A DNA stretch of 64,000 nt, taken from contig OX597816.1 of NCBI GenBank assembly GCA_951406725.2, positions 80,538,001 through 80,602,000 of the forward strand. Direction: 5' to 3'. The DNA is from Octopus vulgaris. Taxonomy: Eukaryota. Positions 19,975 through 35,611 of this stretch are shown one piece after another (position 1 is the first letter of the stretch; every line of letters starts with the position of its first letter). The position numbers were made by a program, and so were the translations under genes. Below the pieces are notes generated by a model, which saw only the letters and a program-made list of their open reading frames with translations, was not told where the DNA came from and did not search any database.

Positions 19975-20078
19975 TATATACATGCATATATATATATATA
20001 TATATGAATATATACATGCATATATATATATATATGAATATATACATGCATATATATATATATATATGAATATATACA

Positions 20079-20112
<34 letters not shown>

Positions 20113-20120
20113 TATATACA

Positions 20121-20162
<42 letters not shown>

Positions 20163-20246
20163 TATATACATGCATATATATATATATATATATGAATATA
20201 TACATGCATATATATATATATATATATATATATGAATATATAGATG

Positions 20247-20282
<36 letters not shown>

Positions 20283-20292
20283 TATATACATG

Positions 20293-20329
<37 letters not shown>

Positions 20330-20337
20330 TATATATA

Positions 20338-20390
<53 letters not shown>

Positions 20391-20415
20391 CATATATATA
20401 TATATATATACATAT
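19655..20415. repeat. Higher-order compound satellite: (TA)n spacers between GAATATATACATGC units
   Basis: Roughly 18 copies of gaatatatacatgc separated by TA runs of variable length; copies at the right end are degenerate. Confidence 0.95.
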
Positions 20416-20439
20416 GTGGCATTTTATAATGTAGTTAGG

Positions 20440-20600
20440 GCAGGAAAGATGGCAGTATCGTTAGCTCTCCAGAAAAAAAAGCTTAGCAGCGTTTACTTCG
20501 TCTTTATATTCCGAGTTCACATTCTACTGAGGTCGAATTTACCTTTCGGGATAATAAAATAAGCACTAGTTGAGTACTTGGGTGGATGCGATCGACCTTT
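20440..20600 (+). mobile_element. SINE family B copy
   Basis: tggcagtatcgttagc...gagttcacattctactgaggtcgaatttacc...aagcactagttgagtacttgggtggatg; followed by (GATA)n at 20652-20745. Confidence 0.7.
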
Positions 20601-20651
20601 ACCACACCCACACCCCACCAAAAATCATCAAGAAGTGTAAATAAATAATGT

Positions 20652-20746
<95 letters not shown>

Positions 20747-21530
20747 GCATAAATAGATATACCCGCAAACTCATAACGAACTACATTATAAAAATACACA
20801 GATTAATGTGCATTTAAACAGCGAGAAACATTTTCTTGGTCAATCTAATCTGTCGACCGCTTCTCAGATATATTCAGTTTCTTTGCTTTGTTAGTTGCAT
20901 AGTATACGGTTTTCTATATAAACTCTCGTCAGTATTTCACCGTAGTGGATACCTTATTTTGCGTAATTTCTATGAACGCTACATCATCGAATACCTATTA
21001 GACATTTTATGAACAATAATGTGTGATTAGGAGTGCCATAAATTTAAATATTAGAAAGCCTGGGTGTGAACGAAATTAAATTTCTAGCATGTGGAACGTC
21101 TACACAAAATTTCATTTGTTATGAGAGGGAATGGAAATTTGCAGAAACACATATGCTTGCAATTGTTCGTGATAATGTGATATGAATTCCATTTCTTTTA
21201 GGGTCTTAGATTTTTACAAACCCTAATATGAATGCTCTTCATATAAGCAAGTTCCTTATTGTCTCTTAAACCCAGGTCAATGAACGATCCCAGCTTAACT
21301 AAAAAGAAATTTGATATACGTTAACAATTTGATTGTCGCTGTTTTAAAACTGTTCAGCAGATGATTACAAGGAGCTTTAACATATATATACACACGCACA
21401 TTTTAGCTGATGCACGCATTTACATTGTATGCATTGAATGCATATGTACATGCATTCATATATCCATATACGTGTGAGTGAATGTATATGTGCTTGTGAA
21501 CATTTCTAGGTGTGTCTGCAAACATATTTT

Positions 21531-21568
<38 letters not shown>

Positions 21569-22380
21569 GTGTGTGTGTGTGTGTGTATGTATGTATGCGT
21601 GTGTGTGTGGGGGGGAAGAGAGTGAGAGAGAGAAAGAGGGGGAGAGAGATGCTATGACAGATAATTTGTGTGCGTGAATCAGTGAGTTTGTGGATAAATA
21701 CATTGTAATGCATATAAAAGAATGACATGATGAGAAGAGAGAGAATTGGGTATGGATATATTAATTCAATAATACATACTTATAAAATATTGAATGCTTA
21801 AAATTAATTTATCTTACTGTTTTCTTTATGTTGTTGTTGCTTTTTGTATATAAATATCTTATACAAAACGTTGTTATGAATTCAATATCCTACTCAAATT
21901 TCAAAATTGTGAGGAATAACATGGTCTAAAAAATCACATTATTATATTCTCATGATTGTAATTGAACGAGAAATATTTAATAATTTCAAAATTGTAGAAC
22001 TGTTGAAATATATATAACGATAATGATTTCATTGTTTATTGATATATTTACATGCTTTTTTTTTTACATTTTATTTTTACACCTGGTCCGATCTTCTTTC
22101 TATTTGCGTATAATGTATCTTTTTGAATTAGACAAAAGATTTATATTAACAAGGCGATTATTCACTTCAAATAAGATCATGAAAAGTTATTTAAAAACTG
22201 CTCATGTAAGTTATATATCCATGCATAATATGTACGTAAACAAACGCACGTATGTTCATACACACATAAGGCACACAAACAAATACACATTCATTCAAAA
22301 CCATCAATCAGACACACAATATAGATAGAGGGATAGATAGATAGATATATAGATAAAGATAGAGAGAGATACATATACCT

Positions 22381-22412
<32 letters not shown>

Positions 22413-22430
22413 GTATATACATACACACGC

Positions 22431-22461
<31 letters not shown>

Positions 22462-22919
22462 TGTATGTATGTATGTATGTATGTATGTATGTATGTATGT
22501 ATGTATCGCTTCCTTTGTTTCTGAGATTCGATATAAATGTAATATCCGAATAAACGTAGTTCGGATCCTCTCACTTATCTTTCAGTGTATGACCAAAATA
22601 CGTCACCCTTCAAGTAGGTTAAATGTTATTTATTTGCACTGGTCGGTATATCATACCACTAGAAGAAGTTAAATTATTGCATAATTTAGAAATTTTTCCT
22701 TGGTAGTGTGTTCTTCCTTGAACTTAATAAAAGGGAGGCAAAATATCTATTTAGAGAGGAACTCCGATAGTGGCTTGGTGTAAAAACTTATAAAGAATGT
22801 CATTGTGTTCAACTAATCAAACGTGTCAACGAAACCGTAACGATTGAAGACATAAATAAATGAAAGTAGAGGTCTCTCTGATATATTTCAAAATGTTGTC
22901 TAACTATGCCAGTTGTAAA

Positions 22920-23061
22920 CAGGTGTGGAGAAAATTTTTCAAGAAGTGGGCCGCATGACGCTCATCAACAGTCGACTGCATTACTGAAAAAAATTCAAGA
23001 TAATTTTTCGTTATATCTGTTCTTCAGAAACTCTCGTGGGTCGCATTTTGCCCATGACTAG
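22920..23061. mobile_element. hAT-type MITE remnant
   Basis: Ends caggtgtggagaaa ... ttgcccatgactag resemble CAGGNGTGGGCAA hAT TIRs, with subterminal gtgggccgcat / gtgggtcgcat motifs. Confidence 0.45.
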
Positions 23062-25636
23062 TTTACATTGTCACAATTGCTTGAACATTCTACAAATTCC
23101 ACTTGTTTAGATATATTCCTTAAGTAATTTCAAATTTATAAAATTTAGGAAACATTTTTCCTCTCAGAATCTTAAGAATCGGTACTTCTCTGCCTACCTC
23201 CAAATAACGAATAACAAAATATATTCTGGAGGGATTGTATCAATATAAACTATTTCATGTAGCTTTCTCTGACTATCTTGATGCTGGCCTATTTCAGGAT
23301 GGTCTCATTACTTAGCCCGTTATATATATTATCTCTGGAATCTATTTAGGGTTTATTGTAGATTTGCTAATTATGGAGATGGTGGTGGCAAGAATTGAAT
23401 TGCTCAATTAAATACTCGATATTAGCACTTTCTAATCTCTGATTCACCGCACAGCGTATATCTCTTTTATATATGAATTTAATTTCTTAATCATGGACAA
23501 GGCTCCAGGTTTATTCAGAAAGAAGTAAGAAATGTTATCATATGTCGTTAAACCTTTACCTAAAACCATTAAGAAATGATACAACAATGAATAATGTGAA
23601 ATGCATTCAAGAAAAGGCTTTCAAGGAACTTCTCTTTTTTCTTCTTTGCTGACAGCTTTATACTCGTGTTTCTAAATTTATAACTGTTAATTGAAATATC
23701 AGATGTTAATGCATTTCCATAGTTTTAAAAGTGTTAGCACATACGATGATGAGATTTGTATTGCTTAAATCTTATCTGTTTCGAATTTGATGTATTTTAA
23801 TCGCTCAGTAGAATAAAGTAAGCGTAAGTAAAATTATTGCAAAAGTAGGAAAAAGCAAGTTAGATTTCTCCTTTGGGTTACTGGGATGAACTCAAAATTC
23901 CGTATTTATATAATTTAACGTTCTGACTCAAGCTGCACAACTGTGGTTGTGATTGAACCTGGCATTCAAGGAATTGAATTCCAGAAGTTTTCAGACTTTT
24001 TCAGGGGAGTCTGATAATGTTTGCAATGCACCTTGTATTTATGTAAAATTAGTCAAGCAGACTGTTTAAAAAATACCAATATCGAAGTAAATGATTGAAG
24101 GTGAAAATGACCAACACTTGAGATACTTCCCAACCTACCAAAAGTATTAGGTGGGCGAATTTGAAGATTTAAGTTAAAGGAGCACTGTATATTTGTCAAT
24201 ATATTTAGCTCCTATATCATATTCAAATCCACTTTCGAACTTACTTAGAAGACAAATTGTGTTTATCAGCTGAATTTCTGTGGAAATCTTCCTGAATGAG
24301 AAATCTCCCAAATGCGAAACCTACGACCCGATGTGCAATAAGATTCACAACCCTTATTTATCCATCTAAAACACAATCTATTTTATGGGAAATCATCTAT
24401 ACTTTTCTCATATACCGTTTTTATCTAATTCTTCTCGGTTATTTTTCGACCAATGTTTCTCTCGGGTTAATAACATTTATAAATCTATCAATCTCGTCCA
24501 CTTTCGCAGCATCTTCTTGAATGTCTAAGAACGTCGATAATATTATTTAGTATTTTAGTTTTTTCTGTTTAGATATTAACTGTATTCCGCCTCGTCATTT
24601 TGTATTTTGTAAATTAGATCATGCCGTTATCTAGAAAAAAATACCTTATAAATGAACTACAGTTTTGCTTCACTTTTGCAATTTATCTAACTTATGTTAC
24701 AATCTAGGATTTGTATTCTCAAATGCCTGTAGTATAAAAACCATTCGCAGCGTCAAACGATTGTTTATATATATTTGTTGGATTGTGTGCATATTCATCG
24801 AACTATTTCAGCTGTCGGAGATAGAACATGTTAGCTGTCTATCTAGCTTAGTATTTAAAGAAAATCCATGACAAGGCGAATTTCGTAATATCAAAATCTC
24901 TATTACTTCACAAGATTATACTCACATCGTAGCACTCACAAATTAAGCAGTTTTAAATATATTTTTGGTTTTCCTTTTTGTTTATATTTATGTATTTGTA
25001 CTCATTATTTGTATTCTTTGCAATACAGGTTAATTATTTCAAAACGACCGCAAACTCTAAAATCTTAACGAAATTTCAAAATAAAAATATGAAATAAAAA
25101 TATGCTTCATGGATTAGCTTGTAAGAAATAAGAATCTAAAAGCATTTTAACAAAGTCTGCTATGGCCGTGTTCCTTTATCAGCGTATTTCAGCATCGCAT
25201 TTAATACCACTGAAAACGTTTTCTCAGTACATCTTAACTTCTTCTCTCAGTATTCCAGAAACATTATCAAAGAAATACTTCCCAGCATAAATCCACTGAT
25301 TCTGTTTTGAAATGCCATTACTTTTCTGTTGGCATTTAATTGAGTTTCTGCGGAATAAAATGCGTCAAAAATAAATTAACACCGAGTAACCTACAATACG
25401 GAGTTTATTCTCAACTACATCTCTACACAACTGGTTATTACACCATATAGGACTGGTTTCCCAGTTTCTCTGGCGTACATATTAAAGCCTAGACGGGATG
25501 TCGCATGTCGCTCCTTCACAGGATTACTCATTTTCACTAACTGAGTGAACTGGAGCAATGTACAAGGAAGTGTTTCTTCAAGAAATCATAACTTTACGAT
25601 TATGAGTCCAACAGCCTAACGACTCATACACCTCTA

Positions 25637-25679
<43 letters not shown>

Positions 25680-25826
25680 GAGAGAGGGGTAAAAAGAAAG
25701 AAATGCACATTAGGCATAAATATAATGGCTTGTATTTGTTTTATAAAAACAAAGATATATACATGCAAATAAATGATTAGAGGTGGAATTAAGAAGTATA
25801 AAAATCATTATTATGAGTTATTATAG

Positions 25827-25865
25827 AAAGTCATGCCCGTTTCGTCATAGCTGTTCACTGACTTT
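25827..25865 (-). ncRNA. Minimal hammerhead ribozyme, G3-C8 core variant (copy 1)
   Basis: aaagtca-GTGAACA-G ctatga C-GAAA-CGG-GCA-tgacttt. Stem I is 7 bp; U16.1 is changed to C. Confidence 0.65.
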
Positions 25866-26466
25866 GAATCGACACCGATTTGCAAACGGTTTTGTGTCTA
25901 ATAGTACCTGAGTGAAAAGAGTGCATGCAAGGGAGGTAAGTGGTTCTGAAAATTATGCAATTAAGGTAGATATGATTACTAGAAAATGAATGGTATATGG
26001 CATGTATGAGCATAAGTGAGATTATTGGTATTAGCAAGGGTAGTAGTGCCCTGCATTAAGTTCTTTGTTCGTGTTAGTTGTGGTGGATATTTATCAATGA
26101 AATTTGCTGCTTCATTTAATCTTTGCTGCACTGTGATATTCTGGTGATACTGATAAAAGGGGAAAATTTAGAAGTTTGGTTTAAGGTTCGTAGCACATCT
26201 GCCTATGTGCGCACTGACCTGTATCTGTCTATATTGTGGGAAGCGGATTTTTTCTTCGCCTGAGGGAATTCGTGTTTGGCCTATATAGTAGGTAATAACA
26301 TAGATTAAGTTTTCAGAGTCACAAGTAAAATTTAACTTATCATAAACATTTCACCTTGTTTGAAGTAAAAGGTGGGGACATGTGCCACAGTTAGGTCTTC
26401 CGCATTTTTCCAGTTTTGGTTCCGTTGTTAAGGGATATAGTCTTTTGCGCTGGTTGATGTTTTTTC

Positions 26467-26505
26467 AAAGTCAGTGAGCAGCTATGACAAAACTGGTATG
26501 ACTTT
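26467..26505 (+). ncRNA. Minimal hammerhead ribozyme, G3-C8 core variant (copy 2)
   Basis: aaagtca-GTGAGCA-G ctatga C-AAAA-CTG-GTA-tgacttt. Stem I is 7 bp and the GUA cleavage triplet is present; G12 is changed to A. Confidence 0.65.
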
Positions 26506-28684
26506 CTATAATAACTCATAATAATGATTTTTATACTTCTTAATTCCACCTCAAATCATATATTTGTATGTATATATCTTTATTCTCATAAAAATCAAGA
26601 CATTACCTTTATACCTAATATGCATTTTCTTTCTTTCTTTTTATTTTTATCTTAATTTATACCACGTGTAGTCTTTTTTCTTTGAAACCTGTTCTTATTA
26701 TACTCACACACACATACACACACATATATATATATATGTATGTGTGTGTGTGTGTATGTATATACTACATTAATTAAGCTTATCTCTAATAAAGTTTCGA
26801 TCTAAATTCTTAATTATAACTTAACTAAATATTTAAAAATATATTCTTTATAATTATGAACTCCCAGTTCAATTTTGTAATCTGAGATACATGTATAAAT
26901 CATAAAACATCATTCCCACTGAATCAAAACTAGAAATATTATGTACATGTGTGTGTATGTGTGTATGTTTATGCGTACATACATATATATACATACACAA
27001 ATATACACACATACATATATATATACATACATGCACACATACATATACACACACATACATACTTGTAGGACATGTTGCTAGTGTTGCATATGTTACCGAA
27101 CTAACTATCGTCCATTGGCTAAAATTGCAAGTAGGCAGAATTACGAAAAAGAAGCAAAATCTAATCAATGACTGGAATCGAATGTCTCAGACTTTACCAA
27201 CCAAGGATAACTTGGGACCTACAACCTCATTACAACTCTTCTACAGCCCAATCAAAAAAGAACAAAAGAATTTAAAGCTGAGAGCTAAATATCGACATTT
27301 GGTTTAATATTAAATTCAGGTAGACTCTTCATTTCACTTCTCTCTAGATACTTCTGACTGAGTCGAGATGATTTTCGCTGTTAATTTACACCCATGACTT
27401 TCGTTTTCTAATTTGCTTAGACTTAACGAAGAAAGAATTGAAGATTTATTAACACACTTGACTCTCTTCTTAGATTTTAATTTCCTGTCTTATAAATCAC
27501 ACTGAGTGAGTAAATATGATATTTGGAAGTAGATGTCGCCTCGTATCAGATTGACGGCTCAGAGGTTGTAAGCTCAAATTAGCAGTAATTGTTTTGTTGT
27601 ACATCTGAGTAGCATACCTAATTCTATATTACTTTGATTCATTAAATATTAGATGGACATAGAAACTTCATATTCCTGGTGAAGTTACATAAAATAACAC
27701 AAATACACAAATTATAAAACAATAAATATTCCCTCGTAGAAGTGGTATATATTTCATCAATTAAACGTAACAAAAGCCTGGAATTAGCACTAAACTAATG
27801 GAATTAATTACTGATAGTAATAAGAAGCAATATATTCGTTTAGCGAAAATCACGGAAAATTTGAAGTGAATTTAATTGTCTGAATAGTCTGTAATGTGCA
27901 TCATTCATGCTAGTACACAATTGTAATCCTCCACCACGCCCCGAAGTTTTTCGTTCATGCATTCTAATGATATATGTGATATGAACTGAAATTACGTCGC
28001 GGAATAACGGCAACAGACGACCCGGAAAGGAAACACTTCCTGGTCATTGCACTGCGAAAAGCGCTATACCTCCTTTAAATCGGAGACCTTAAAAGGTATG
28101 AAAGAACATGTCGGATAACGTAATCTTAAATACATATATATTTTTTTTAATGAACGTTGGGATGTTGATGGTTAAAATGCTTTTGATCAAAAATCTGTTT
28201 TATCAGGACTGAACTAAGGAAAAACTTACAAAAACAGCAATTACTATATAGCATATATAGCATATAAAGCAGGTTCGATGAAGATAATTTTGATTTCTAT
28301 TGACGATGATCCAATTATGAAACTTAAATAATAAATCTAGCTTTAAAAAATCATACAAGATGAATACAAAAGAGAAAGCGAATACATAAAAAACGTATTT
28401 CAAAAATAGTAAAAATACAAGAGTAAAATTTTCAAAGAGAAGTCTAATATAAATGGTTAGATAACACATTATTTTATTGCTGCTATTTTTTTCATCGCAT
28501 ATCGTTTGTTATTTCCGTCTTTTCAAAAGACATAATGTGGTGTGAAGAGGAAAAGCCATTAACAAACTGGATTATATATTTATTATATAAGTGTTTCGAA
28601 AGCGAGTCAAAATCATTCATTTTATATTTTTTGTTTTATATCATCAAAATTACACGAATATATTTATATATTCATATACATATT

Positions 28685-28765
<81 letters not shown>

Positions 28766-28984
28766 ATGTAAGTATGTACGTATAAATGTGTGTATATATC
28801 TATATAAGTGTGCATGTGTATACATATATTCACATTGCATAAATATAATATACATGTATAGGAAATCATACACAAAGACACACATTGTTCACACACACAC
28901 ACATATATGTAATAATACATAAATGAATAAACGCGTGTGCATATATAAGTGTGTGTGTGTGCGAGTGTGTCTGTATGTTCATAA

Positions 28985-30104
28985 TGAAGAAAATGTTTCA
29001 GTGACTGCGGACCCCCCACCAAAGGATAAGTGAAATCCTCAATGCAATACAAAAGTGCTTTCACAACTCCACTGGGACACTTGCAACTACGCCTGACGAG
29101 TCCTTCGACACCAAACCAAGGGGTGGCAACTATCGATTACAACGAAATAGAAGGAACTGATGTAATATCAGCCATTTGTTGAAAGGAGCTTAAACTCAGC
29201 CACTGACACTGTTGGATTCCAGGCACCACGCCACAAAAGAGGTAAAGGAGTCTTAGCAAAAGCTCAATAGATCTTCTTCCAAATCCTCCAAAGATTCCCT
29301 GCAAGTAGTTAGACACCCCAGAAAGTTAAAGGAAAGTATATTATGCTATATCCATAAAGGAAGAAGCAGAGCAGATTCTAAACATTATAGATACCCCGCT
29401 CTCTAACCTCATATACCAACAGTCATAGAAGGAATTGTCAGGAGGAATCTGACCATGTTCCTAGAAGACAGCGATTTGCTCCCTGACATATGACACCTAG
29501 CATGAGACACCTAGCATGACTCCGCTCAGGAACCATGCTAGGTGTCTTGTGCAGCTTCTGAGGCACTATCACCGGGTCTTGGAACAATTTATAATTCTCT
29601 CATATGTGATATATCTTGATTTTGCAAAGTCGTTTGATAAAGTCGATCACGAGGCGAAATGTCACAAGCTACAAGGAGAGGAATTAGTTTGGAAACTAGG
29701 TGAATGTTCACATTACTTCTTAAAACGCAGAAGCCATGCTGCGGTGGCCAAATGTACCCCCTCTAAGGAGACATTAATAGCAACTAGAGTGACCCATAGA
29801 ACTGGACTGGGACCGGTTTTTAACTAACATGCTGACAGTTACAAATGGCGAATGGCTCGATGGCTTCTGAGAACTTCACGAGAAATTATGCTGGTCCTAT
29901 GGAGGACATCTTTCTTTATCTGTCTGGACTACTGCGGTAAGCTTGGTCACCCAGTAGTCTCACATTAATTGCGGAATTCGAGGTAGTTTAGCTGTGCTAC
30001 GCCAGGAAGATTGCATATATGGAGCAATTCAGCTACTTGGAGAGACTGAAAGAAAACAATTACCACCGTACTCCCTGCAGAGAAGACCACAGAGATATGC
30101 AGTG

Positions 30105-30166
<62 letters not shown>

Positions 30167-30300
30167 AAGATCCTTCAAGGGTAGTCACCAAAAATTGGTA
30201 TCGAGAGTTCTACCAGCCCCCGGAACAGGATACCACTGCACTTTTCCAAAGGTACGCTGACATTATCTAGAGTAAGGACCAGGTACTGCAATAGTTTGCG
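28985..30300 (+). mobile_element. Decayed CR1/L2-type LINE RT region
   Basis: IHKGRSRADSKHYR (~29349-29390), IYLDFAKSFDKVDH in ORF 29516-29827, and MLVLWRT...LDYC at ~29888-29935. Many stops and an internal (GT)n. Confidence 0.8.
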
Positions 30301-30479
30301 ATTGTAGGACCGATATATTGGTGGAGGAATGAGTTCAAGAATCAACTTGACATTTTATTGTCCAAGATCCATGTACGTGTGTCTATATGTACAGACATAT
30401 ATAGAGAAATACATAAATACATACATTTATGGTCATTCATATATTCATAACTACATGCTTACAGATAGACATACAGGCA

Positions 30480-30511
<32 letters not shown>

Positions 30512-30982
30512 TCCGTTTCTATATCATATCTCGCTCATATTCATTAATAAATTCATATATTCCAACAGTTTCACACTAAAACATGAATATAACCAGATCC
30601 ATACCAGCCTTATCACCTTTTAGCGCATATTTTCTATACCTGTATTCGAAATTCGCTGATATTTAGTTAGATATGAAATTATTCAACATAATTGTTACTA
30701 TTATTCTCGCAGCAAGAATTTGTTAACAAAATTATTATCTAGCCTCACACACACACACACAAACACAAACATAATACCCACCTACATACATGCATACATA
30801 CATACATACATACATACATACATACATACATACATACATACATACATACATACATACATAGTACATCCATCCAAACATGCATGAATATTTTGGTATATCT
30901 ACAAACGCATACACTGCCACTTACATTCACACTCATCCACTTTCTCTATATTTGCAATTCTACTTAGGCACGTGTGTGTATA

Positions 30983-31015
<33 letters not shown>

Positions 31016-31310
31016 CTGTGTATGTGTGTATATGTGTGTGTGTGTATGCGCGTGTATATATATATGAATACATATACCTTTTTTGATACGTATATAATTC
31101 TATCTCTATCTATCTGGCTCTCTCCCTCTCTCTCTCATTTTCTCTCTCTCTCTCTCTCTCTCTCTAGTTATCTATTAACAAAACTAGATATCTGTTGTTG
31201 ATATTATTTTGTTGATGTTGACGATGATGATGATGACGATGATGATGACGATGATGATGACGATGATGATAGTGTAGTAATCTATGTAGTTAGCTAACAA
31301 TGTGTCTCAG

Positions 31311-31368
<58 letters not shown>

Positions 31369-31987
31369 ATATGTACCTATGTATCTATATAATTATACAC
31401 CACAATATATACGTATATATATATATATGTATGTATATATATATATATATATATTTATCTGTATATCACATACATACTCATACACACACGCAAACACACA
31501 CACATTATCTCTATCACAGCTTGTTGTCCTCTTTACTCTATATCGAACACAATATAATATGATTGCACTCCAGTGGCAAGTGTCATTATAAATCTGTCAG
31601 CGTAGCGAATGACTCAATAACATAACTGATTAGAAATTCTCGACGAACCGTTGTAATTGCTTTATTCCATTTTGATCTATATTTTTGGCTTGTTTCGTTG
31701 CTAAAGCAGCAAAATCATCTGCGGCATGGAATCCATAACCCAAGGTAATCACAATAACGTTAGTAGAGCTACGCTTCCACTGTATGCTGAGTCATGGAAT
31801 CGTCTCTATCTCTATAATCATTCCATTTTCTTCCAGTTGTGAACAACTCATTGGTGAGAGAGAAAAACTTGCTATATATTAACGTTGTGACCTTGATGCC
31901 TCTTTCTGTGAGATTGACTAAGTTGCACGTGATAAGATTAAAGATGCAGTCTTGAATATGAGGAAAAGAGATCAGACAACAGATATC

Positions 31988-32105
31988 TTCTCTTTCCTTT
32001 TACTTGTTTCAATCATTGGACACATCATCATTCCGCACATTTTCCGTCCATCCAGTTCACTCACAAGGTACTGGTCGGCCGAGGCTAGAATAGAAGACAA
32101 CTACT
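31988..32105 (-). mobile_element. SINE family A, internally deleted copy
   Basis: cttttacttgtttcaatcattgga...ccagttcactcacaaggtactggtcggccgaggctagaatagaagaca matches 10735-11040. Confidence 0.65.
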
Positions 32106-32334
32106 CTGCGGCTGCAAAACGAGAGTCTGAAGCCATACATACACTAATTAAAAAGTGAAATAGATGGAATAAAATTATGGGAGAGAGAATAACAAACTCT
32201 AGTAAAGAAGATCGTCACTACTCCATAAGAAATGCAACTAAATCATGCTGCTCCAGCCAAGGTGGAAAATATTTTAATCATATCACTTCATCGGAAGTAG
32301 ACGTGAATTTTACAGCGCTGCATTGCTTATATAA

Positions 32335-32550
32335 GGTTGCGAGTTGGCAGAATCATATCAACACCGGATAAAATGCTTAGCGGCATTTAGTGCGACTTTA
32401 CGTTCTCAATTCAAATACCGTCAGAGTCGAATTTGTCTTTTACCCTTTCTGGATTGATAAAATAAATATCAGTTGGGCACTGGGGTCAATGTAATCGACT
32501 TACCCTCTTCCCCGAAATTGCTGGCCTTGTGCTTCAATTCGAAATCGATA
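32335..32550 (+). mobile_element. SINE family B, near full length
   Basis: gagttggcagaatc...gtcgaatttgtc...gcactggggtcaatgtaatcgact...gctggccttgtgc. Confidence 0.75.
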
Positions 32551-32561
32551 TTTTAGCTTAT

Positions 32562-32592
<31 letters not shown>

Positions 32593-33184
32593 CCTATCTC
32601 TCGCTTTCTTTCTCTGTATCTCCATTTCTCTCTATCTCTCTCGTTCTCTCTCCAGTAAATCTTTACACTCTCTATTTCAATTTCTCTCTCACCCTCTCTT
32701 CCTATACTTACTGATGACTCATTCAATTAATCTATATATCTAGTTATCAATCTATTTTTCTTTCAATATTACTTTCTTTCCTCCTTCCTTTCTCTCTCTC
32801 CCTCTCCCCTCTCTTTCTCTCTCTCTCTGCTTCTATCCTTTTCTCTCAGCCCCATTTATTCTAGTTCAATATTGACTAATCTGCAGTGATATTTTAAAAT
32901 GTTAGCTAAATACGATGAAAACGCATATATTTAAAACTGAAGCACGTGCAAACAAAACACAATATCAAAAACTGAAACATCTGTGACTCTTTTACCAAAG
33001 ACAGAAATAGATGATACATAAATGTAAAACTGCATGTTATTTAATCTTCTGGATGTAATCTTGATATAAGCTTACAGAATGGATTCATTTAGCTAAAACA
33101 TTTAAACTGAGTTACTTTTCTACGAAGTGAAGGCATTTTTTTTTCTCCTTTGATGCATTTGTGTGTTTAAAAGAAGTGACTCTA

Positions 33185-33330
33185 GTATGGCAGTGTGTTT
33201 AAGAAGTCTCGAAACAGAGTTCGATTCCACTATACAGCACTTTGGGCAATGTCTTCTGTCGTTTTGCTTTGAGGTGATCAATAATTTATGCGTAGAATTT
33301 GCTCGTCGGAAACACTGATACAGCTTGTGT
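33185..33330 (+). mobile_element. Degraded SINE family A head
   Basis: tggcagtgtgtttaagaag...gagttcgattccact...ctttgggcaatgtcttctg. Confidence 0.55.
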
Positions 33331-35611
33331 ATGTGACGTGATGCGCGTGTGCATTGTTTTCTAATTTGACGTTTGAAAAATGACCAAAATGCTGAATGAA
33401 GCTTTTGTTCGGGCGGATTAAGAAAGCCTCATTACTGACGTAATGCGGTCCACACCAGCGAAAATTGACTTGAAATTTGCTTCCCTCTTGATAGTTCTTC
33501 TTGAATTATGTCTATGAGTCGTGAGGGAAAAATAGAAGTAGAAGGAAATTGATATCTTTACCCAAAATTTAAGAGACAATAATAACTTTTGTATTCTTGA
33601 CGACTTCTTCAAAGCCATAACACCGCTCCTGTTAAATTATAATCCTCCACCACACTTTTAAATTCCTTGAACGTTAGTTTCTTTGAATTTCCATATTTGT
33701 AATCCTAGCTGTGTCGCTGCACATGCTAACCACACCCTTACTGGTATAAATTCCACAGTTTACATGAAAGTTTGGTAACGATGCTCTTCACAATCCTTCA
33801 AGATTTCCCCAAACATTTTCTAAGCACGGTTTCCAAACCAGCAGTTCTTAATTTTAATCCTTTCAATTAAACTTTATTTTGAGGTGCCATTCTCCATACT
33901 TGAGGATGTGTTACATAATTGTGCGGGGATTCCCCTCCTTTATTTTCTCTTTCCCCTTCATTTCCTCTTTCTTTTAGTTCTTCCACCTTAGATTTTAGGT
34001 ATCTCCACCCTCAATCTTTGACACTTTATTTGTGAGGTTTATTTCTAAATTTCATTTCGCAGGTCTTTAATCTTTTAACCACTAATCGTTCACGCGGCGT
34101 CATTCATTTCCGACTAACTGATGTATCGGTCCCAGATTTTATGCTTTTCTAAGATACATAATTGAACGCCCGATTGTTACTCACCTCCGTCCCTCAAATT
34201 AGTTATCGTTATTGTTCCTCCCTCTACCCTTAAGTTACACTTCTAATTTGCCTTGCTGCTTTCCCTTTTCGTTTCATTTTACTCCTTCCTTAACTCAACC
34301 TAACATTCCGTCATCATCCACAGCCCAGTCGTTTCGTTATATGGTACTTTCACCTTGGAACAGTTTTGCTACAGCAGAGGTGGTAATACTTCACATCACT
34401 TGATTGTTCGATTCACACTTTAAACTTATATCCAAACTTATTATTTTGTAGACCTAAAACCTATTGTAATTGCCTCCTGTAAATTTTTCATTTTCTTCAT
34501 TTCTACCGAATACATAATTATTCTCCATCTTTCGATACAGTATTCTTAATTAACGAGATTACTGATTAGCTAACGAATAACTTATTTCTAAGCTTTTGTT
34601 TACTTAATACATCATCATGCTAAAATGTAATATTATTTTATTTATTAGTTAACTAGTCCCAACGAACTGCGAGAATTCTTTTTCCCTTTATATTTCATTC
34701 TTTTTTTCTTTATTTTACATTTATTGTATTTTCATTTATCTCCTTCTCCCACTCCTCAGCATATGGAGTCGAGGGATCCTGATGCATTTGTCTCCTATCG
34801 TCCATCAATCCACCTTAACAGACTCTAGTGGAATGAATATCAAGCAATCGTTCACATTTATTATCTGTATAGTTATCACCGTTAAAACCCTTTATGGCTT
34901 GCTTTAAAATTTTATTGCCAGTAACTTCTTCCTTCAACTACCCCACCCCTACACTCCAGCATATTGTTTTACCCTTACATGTACTTATTTTTTTTCCCAT
35001 CCACATTATTAACGCTGCTACTACCATCACCATAACATCATTATCATTACTGAAGTTGATATCATTACTATTGTTTGTTTCTTTATCACCTCATTAGTAT
35101 TAGTACTATGTTTGATCATGCTTTTAGCGTTCCTCTAGGTTACTATAAATGAAATCGTACATTTCCCTCGTTGGCTAAATAAAAATGGTACATTATCATC
35201 ATCATCTTATAATGACTTTGCTTGTCATTGGGTTACTTAGCCCGTTGGTAACACTTTAACGTGATTAGATAATAAGAGGGAGAGAGAAAAATAGGGAAGG
35301 AGAAAAAGAGGGAGAGATAAGTGTCGATAACGTGAAGTTATCAAATGATTAATTGAAGGGAAATAGAGGAGAAAGCAAAAGGAGAGAGAAAAAGTGGATA
35401 GGGCGAAGAGAGAGACAGAAAGAGGATGAAAGAAAAAGAGGGATACTACAGAGACAATAGTAACGAATATTGTGCTAAATTCTATATTTTAACTGATATG
35501 TGTGTGTGTGTGCCTGTGTGTATCTATGTGTGTGTGTATGAATGTATGTATGAATATATGTAGCTATGTGTATATGTACAGATACACATGTATATGCTTA
35601 AAAACATGTGA

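Follow-up and report, generated by a model that had tools for sequence, protein, structure and literature searches.

A truncated Penelope-like element with two hammerhead copies

The window is a stretch of 64,000 nucleotides of Octopus vulgaris DNA (contig OX597816.1, positions 80,538,001 to 80,602,000 of the forward strand), and all positions are given within it. Between 25693 and 26636 it carries a dead, 5'-truncated Penelope-like element (PLE), which consists of an endonuclease remnant and an inverted terminal repeat. The left arm (25693..25868, minus strand) is the 3' pLTR end of the element and adjoins a (TA)n tract at about 25638-25676. The right arm (26464..26636, plus strand) is an inverted, 5'-truncated copy of the pLTR that starts 3 nt ahead of stem I of its hammerhead and meets the element body at a shared word of 5-7 nt. 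As inverted repeats, the arms are 92% identical over 130 nt without gaps and 88.7% identical with gaps when 25693-25868 is aligned to 26464-26636. The region between them is read on the minus strand and comprises the 3' untranslated region from the end of the ORF to the hammerhead (25869..26038) and the 3' end of the broken PLE ORF (26039..26464), in which a C-x4-C-x2-C linker and a GIY-YIG remnant were recognised among stops, frameshifts and deletions. On the side of the right arm only, a family-derived extension (26637..26700, plus strand) is covered by family loci and followed by (CA)n/(TA)n; it is partly of low complexity and is likely the one-sided 'tail' of a PLE. To the left of the element, the segment 25420-25600 resembles another dispersed repeat, and two fetched loci match 25520-25580.

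The protein evidence came from related copies in the 2.8-Gb genome. With tblastn, the ORF remnant was 54% identical (E 5e-37) to the C-terminal 154 residues of a frame of 563 aa in copy L111. Within this one frame of L111 a reverse transcriptase is followed by a C-terminal GIY-YIG endonuclease, as in EN+ PLEs, and both domains are above the Pfam cut-offs (RVT_1 with 31.4 bits, cut-off 29.6; GIY-YIG with 27.6 bits, cut-off 22.6). Three short frames of the window had no Pfam match, four short frames of other copies gave sub-threshold matches only, and the protein database returned a single relative, P0001, without DNA context. The pLTR with its inverted 5'-truncated copy and the microsatellite target likewise fit an EN+ PLE, and a layout of truncated body, inverted pLTR fragment, one-sided tail and microsatellite flanks is described for PLEs in PMC8557442.

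The initial annotation had spoken of a Penelope pLTR. That the element is a PLE was upheld by the protein evidence, but the linker points to another branch of these elements. A CX2-5CxxC linker, named in PMC8557442 as a mark of Neptune or Nematis and not of Penelope/Poseidon, is present as C-x4-C-x2-C in both the window and L111. Judged by this linker motif alone, the element would be of the Neptune/Nematis type rather than Penelope/Poseidon. The Neptune and Nematis EN+ PLEs described in PMC8557442 share with it, besides the linker, the C-terminal GIY-YIG, the insertion into microsatellites, the inverted 5'-truncated copy and the one-sided tail. The locus does not fit a non-LTR retrozyme, which would consist of non-coding tandem units each with a hammerhead; it holds one coding element only, truncated and accompanied by an inverted arm.

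Each arm contains a minimal type I hammerhead of 39 nt with a G3-C8 core. The hammerhead of the 3' pLTR in the left arm occupies 25827..25865 on the minus strand, with G3 at 25858, C8 at 25853 and H17 at 25834, and its cut is predicted between 25834 and 25833. In the second copy, which lies in the inverted pLTR fragment at 26467..26505 on the plus strand, G3 is found at 26474, C8 at 26479 and H17 at 26498, with the predicted cut between 26498 and 26499. Both motifs have a stem I of 7 pairs, a six-base loop closed by G10.1-C11.1 and a stem III insert of four bases. The conserved core is broken in both of them: C replaces U16.1 at 25835 in the left arm, and A replaces G12 at 26489 in the right arm. 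A G12A change is described to slow cleavage of the full-length hammerhead about 10^5-10^6-fold (PMC2553840) and would on its own silence the right arm; in their present state, neither of the two copies in the window would be active.

It had been claimed that both inverted arms carry a GUGANCA-type hammerhead with one private lesion in each copy. The 39-nt motifs were indeed found in these places, and U16.1C and G12A are private, with U16.1 restored in 87-96% of the contig depth of three public runs. The number of private changes had been set too low: the palindrome is additionally altered by C to G at 25838 in the left arm and by C to U at 26494 in the right arm, where N7 is G and not the A or U of the family. 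The assumption that the variable base is C, which makes stem III palindromic, was borne out by the family copies.

When folded as monomers, the motifs were no better than shuffled sequences (z -0.70 and -0.47), as is expected of a minimal hammerhead. No hammerhead was among the Rfam matches listed for 20000-34000 (best 150 of 173), and no gathering match was obtained in 7 loci, canonical C3-G8 arrays included. Since Rfam also misses these canonical arrays, the miss is not specific to the swapped pair.

The G3-C8 core and its conservation in the family

The family pattern with G3-C8 had 42 exact matches in the genome and 0 for the reversed control, so the motif is not due to chance. The canonical C3-G8 version of the same pattern had 0 genome matches; a CUGANGA search misses the family, as the initial annotation had foreseen. 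With positions 3-9 left free, 50 genome matches were counted by eye and showed G3 in 49, C8 in 47, both in 46 and C3 in none; 12 of these rows are near-identical copies from contig C17, and after collapsing them 35 of 39 had G3-C8. The swap is therefore a feature of the family, as had been proposed, and the family state in these matches is G3-C8 and not CUGANGA. A set of 30 loci chosen by DNA similarity contained 26 G-C, 2 G.A, 1 G.U and 1 G.G. In the contigs of the three public runs, none of the listed variants exceeded 3% at G3 and C8-to-U made up 3-4% of the depth, with N7 varying in a third to a half; these contigs passed an 80% filter that favours the G-C subfamilies, and they cannot show cut ends. 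Since the contigs of the three runs are similar and one run may be of the same source, they are no evidence of a spread to distant species.

One old insertion is present on the single contig C17 in at least 12 near-identical copies (G000:C17:44.67-79.95 Mb; L012, L013, L016-L018, L020-L022, L025, L026, L029), which a segmental duplication or a gene array has carried along.

For a second sample, copies were chosen by endonuclease protein similarity, so that the hammerhead played no role in the sampling. It comprised 90 of 150 copies (the top 30 and 60 with long frames or spread down the list). A parser in which positions 3, 7 and 8 were free accepted 76 motifs from 91 locus-strands; 15 without a parsable motif were dropped, and L165 was counted twice for its two arms. 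The closing pair of stem II was well kept, with G10.1 in 73/76 and C11.1 in 72/76. Stem I covariation, which the initial annotation had named as a genome-wide check, was found at two pairs that change on both sides, 2.1:1.1 (A-U 42, G-C 27) and 2.3:1.3 (G-C 41, A-U 23, U-A 4). The NUH triplet was present with A in 42, U in 28 and C in 5 motifs at H17, and G in 1. The stem III insert was CCGG in 21, CCAUGG in 18, CCAAUUGG in 9 and CCGCGG in 1 of the 76 motifs, the remainder being mostly one change off, and it stayed palindromic throughout its growth from four to six and eight bases. Helix II follows straight after A9 with 1-3 pairs, one base pair in the window's subfamily, and thus differs from a long helix II preceded by an unpaired base.

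The majority letters of U4, G5, A6, A9, G10.1, C11.1, G12, A13, A14, A15.1 and U16.1 were unchanged in all seven subfamily groups, with A14 at just 3/6 in one small group. Across the same groups 3:8, 2.1:1.1 and 2.3:1.3 changed on both sides, and N7 and H17 varied inside their permitted sets. In the flanks 57 of 179 clear columns varied (32%), which corresponds to a rough P of 0.015 for 0 changes at the 11 core positions. The parser scores the core positions and conservation is partly built in; an independent alignment gave the same picture.

The switch to A3-U8 and the other 3:8 pairs of the genome

Among the 76 motifs of the protein-selected copies, the 3:8 pair was A-U in 61, G-C in 11, A.C in 3 and A.A in 1, and C3 was absent. 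In the subfamilies with one common stem I, the best 100 of 129 matches were read by eye as 82 A-U, 11 G-C, 4 A.C, 1 G.U and 2 other, where independent columns would be expected to yield about 10 G.U and 15 A.C. The younger subfamilies had 96 A-U among the best 100 of 125 matches. A single copy with C3 occurred in each of these two sets of best 100, unpaired at 8. A Watson-Crick pair at 3:8 was found in 72/76, in 93/100 (best of 129), in 96/100 (best of 125) and in 46/50 with the core positions free, and the C3/G8 of the CUGANGA box is not a character of the family. That both letters changed together argues that the predicted self-cutting fold was likely still under selection. The double change in the window had initially been read as covariation. 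This is supported, but the two arms of one insertion represent one event that was copied, and the later switch from G-C to A-U is the better evidence.

A DNA tree of 107 copies, calculated with the hammerhead excluded and after removal of nine duplicates from C17 and of six rows that were redundant or doubtful, was a ladder with one G-C/A-U change, which amounts to 1 independent pair. The median end branches were 0.087 for G-C (39 rows, some with noisy alignments) and 0.029 for A-U (60 rows). In the protein tree, which was rooted on the sister family B, the A-U rows formed one nested clade (97/94, with the bootstrap not settled) that had one G-C row inside. The ladder, the branch lengths and the protein tree indicate that G3-C8 is the older state and A3-U8 the derived one. 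In these trees the change from G3-C8 to A3-U8 is one event, not 72, and because of this the Fisher P of 7e-11 for the 76-motif table is not independent evidence.

Two related young copies, L118 and L159, are both unpaired with A3.C8 and perhaps represent a short-lived intermediate subfamily. In the youngest subfamilies of family A (L103, L111-L114, L120, L121, L130, L134, L143, L157-L170) the GAAA box contains one extra base (G, U or A after G12) and stem II has two conserved pairs. The series points to an upstream G that assumed the role of G12, and the extra base could also be read as a loss of G12.

The sister family B, with 58% protein identity, has the same 11 positions and the palindrome, and carries U3-A8. 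It is very young (L221-L224; G000:C9:10668000-10677999 and many others) and forms tandem units of about 4.4 kb at 99% identity; 150 scored copies had 94-100% protein identity. In these units a 446-aa upstream frame overlaps the 784-aa RT-EN frame. EN+ PLEs are described as having a single ORF, which makes this pair of overlapping frames unusual, and remnants of the upstream frame were also seen beside family A copies. In L193, a second hammerhead-like motif with U3.G8 lies behind the family B hammerhead at a junction with another element. Tandem units of about 359 bp, each with a canonical C3-G8 hammerhead and a palindromic stem III, are present in L188 and L189 (G000:C1:20001500-20005500 and C1:92886000-92889000) in head-to-head blocks and are retrozyme-like.

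A general pattern that allowed just C or G at each of positions 3 and 8 had 444 matches against 65 control matches in all; by eye, the best 100 of the 444 comprised 66 C-G, 30 G-C, 3 G.G and 1 C.C. With G-C and A-U in the lineage studied here, U-A in family B and C-G in other repeats, all four Watson-Crick pairs occur at 3:8 in one genome. Among 40 loci screened for a near outgroup, L077 and L173 were the only ones with a canonical core that had PLE protein remnants, and these were too short to place. A metagenome scan gave at least 115 matches (51 G-C, 47 A.C, 10 A-U and 7 G.U), of which 11 had 5/6 stem I pairs; there was no pairing bias, and the matches were set aside as chance.

Predicted cleavage and its alternatives

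We consider it probable that the intact copies of the source elements are slow, dimer-dependent and probably protein-assisted self-cleaving ribozymes, a reading that draws on the joint change at 3:8, the fixed core, the stem I covariation, the palindromic stem III and the position in the pLTR. The two pLTR hammerheads of a tandem transcript would pair via the palindrome over 6-10 bp, from A15.1 to U16.1, and swap their stem I strands. G12 would serve as general base; the general acid would be the 2'-OH of nucleotide 8, positioned by the 3:8 Watson-Crick pair irrespective of its letters, and the cut would occur after GUA, or after GUU or GUC in the young subfamilies. Cleavage would trim unit-length RNA out of read-through transcripts, probably with the help of the element's protein.

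In the cofolds, the intermolecular stem III formed in all 7 copies whose palindrome is intact; the left arm of the window did not form it in the designed way. Only for L091 was the complete designed dimer the minimum-energy structure, and for L050 and L014, which belong to the subfamily of the window, a competing hairpin was more favourable by 4.6 and 10 kcal/mol. Any Watson-Crick pair at 3:8 can reportedly work, as Przybilski and Hammann are said to have found in 2007, with a context-dependent preference for a pyrimidine at position 3.

The chemistry is documented for other hammerheads. According to PMC6155905, G12 is the general base and G8 acts via its 2'-OH as the general acid, and a G8C mutant is described as nearly dead and partly rescued by C3G (PMC8495972). 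For the hammerhead of the lizard Poseidon PAc PLE it is reported that engineered C3G/G8C partly restores cleavage and that the protein is needed (PMC11167929). Minimal PLE hammerheads cleave weakly, even when dimeric, and a palindromic stem III implies the dimer model, as set out in PMC4209133.

The fold could instead be kept as a structure for binding or template recognition by the RT-EN protein, with cleavage residual or absent. The account of the lizard PLE in PMC11167929 speaks for this, since catalytic mutants left insertion in vitro intact and no RNA reads ended at the cut site. The inverted arms of our own elements speak for it as well: none of 16 inverted second copies started within 10 nt of the predicted cut (107 loci examined, microsatellite matches set aside), and 5 of the 16 started 27-41 nt before it (26464 in the window; L107, L114, L150 and L009), close to the 5' edge of stem I, which is a possible template-switch hot spot in these small numbers. 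The lineage also tolerates a one-pair stem II and an insertion in the GAAA box. However, the 3:8 pair sits in the catalytically rearranged core, G12, U16.1 and the NUH triplet are kept as the chemistry needs (H17 is A, U or C in 75/76), and a surface recognised by a protein would be less ready to accept four different 3:8 pairs across families; we therefore regard a pure binding structure as unlikely, although it is the strongest competitor of self-cleavage.

Still less can be said for a ribozyme that died in an ancestor, after which 3 and 8 drifted and their match was a coincidence carried by a single master lineage. Such drift would agree with the one joint 3:8 change, with both changes being transitions in an AT-rich genome and with no path to G-C having been observed from either C-G or U-A. 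It is very improbable in view of 3 and 8 both changing inside one stem-II subclass almost without intermediates, of stem I pairs that change on both sides, of a palindrome lengthened symmetrically twice, of 11 core positions that stayed fixed against 32% change in the flanks and of the common core in family B. We give almost no credence to the conserved letters being a DNA-level signal of the pLTR, such as a promoter or an endonuclease site, and not an RNA structure. Promoters in pLTRs are described in PMC6765202 and palindromes suit dimeric DNA-binding proteins, but the compensated changes at 3:8 and in stem I, the free N7 and loop II and the variable length of the palindrome match the hammerhead map position by position.

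Relation to known hammerheads

Taken as a self-cleaving ribozyme, the lineage behaves as a minimal PLE hammerhead that departs only in the literal C3/G8 and in the long helix II, and cleavage is predicted for it. Metazoan PLEs carry minimal hammerheads of type I (Cervera and de la Peña 2014, PMC4209133) that are alike in the pLTR position, the type I topology, G10.1-C11.1, the palindromic stem III that implies a dimer and the opposite-strand second copy of truncated elements. In their CUGANGAH consensus helix II is long and A9 is followed by an extra base; this consensus and the inspected rows of the alignment have C3-G8, and U3-A8 is the sole 3:8 variant reported. Here, in contrast, G-C or A-U occupies 3:8, helix II is 1-3 pairs long, no extra base follows A9 and the young subfamilies have an insertion in the GAAA box.

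The natural U3-A8 hammerheads (Perreault 2011, PMC3088659; Schistosoma Cercyon PLEs, PMC4209133) are described as likewise compensated with 3:8 pairing kept, and Perreault 2011 (PMC3088659) also reports a stem II of one pair and the insertion of a U into the GAAA box. U3-A8 needs two transitions and keeps the pyrimidine-purine order, whereas G3-C8 and A3-U8 reverse it. Engineered C3G/G8C (lizard Poseidon PAc, PMC11167929; PMC8495972; PMC3884650) is the same pair and is described as partly active, but these are laboratory mutants, unlike the natural G3-C8 here that was carried through successive amplification waves. The hammerheads in File S2 of PMC8557442 all begin with CUGA and have G8, which gives a C3-G8 pair unlike here. 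Animal non-LTR retrozymes, as presented in 10.64898/2026.07.22.740005, are alike in the type I hammerhead and the palindromic stem III but are non-coding tandem arrays, whereas the hammerhead here lies behind an RT-EN ORF remnant. In the literature covered, G3-C8 was found as an engineered pair only and A3-U8 not at all; the survey of Lünse 2017, the largest of these ribozymes, lay outside this scope, so the absence from print is not secure. The initial observation is confirmed, and the sequences support an extension of its interpretation from G3-C8 to a purine-3/pyrimidine-8 lineage.

It is debatable whether the mini-hammerheads of PLEs do anything: they cut weakly in vitro and were dispensable in the one reconstituted system. 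The compensated change of the 3:8 pair, which positions the general acid, is sequence evidence for selection on the catalytic fold in a transposing lineage, and the four Watson-Crick pairs in one genome are a natural series at hand for assays. At least 300 copies with an exact pattern in this genome (50, 129 and 125 matches) escape CUGANGA descriptors, so that PLE surveys and statements of 'no hammerhead' need redoing with a free 3:8 pair. A possible, though tentative, reading is that the lineage is a time-ordered natural record of a working active site evolving in one genome, from G3-C8 to A3-U8, to a longer palindrome and then, together with an inserted base, to a shifted register of the general-base G, with every step active. 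If this is true, purine-3 cores would form a class of PLE hammerheads that is widespread and invisible to descriptors, and a hammerhead would be present in some of the elements that are reported to lack it.
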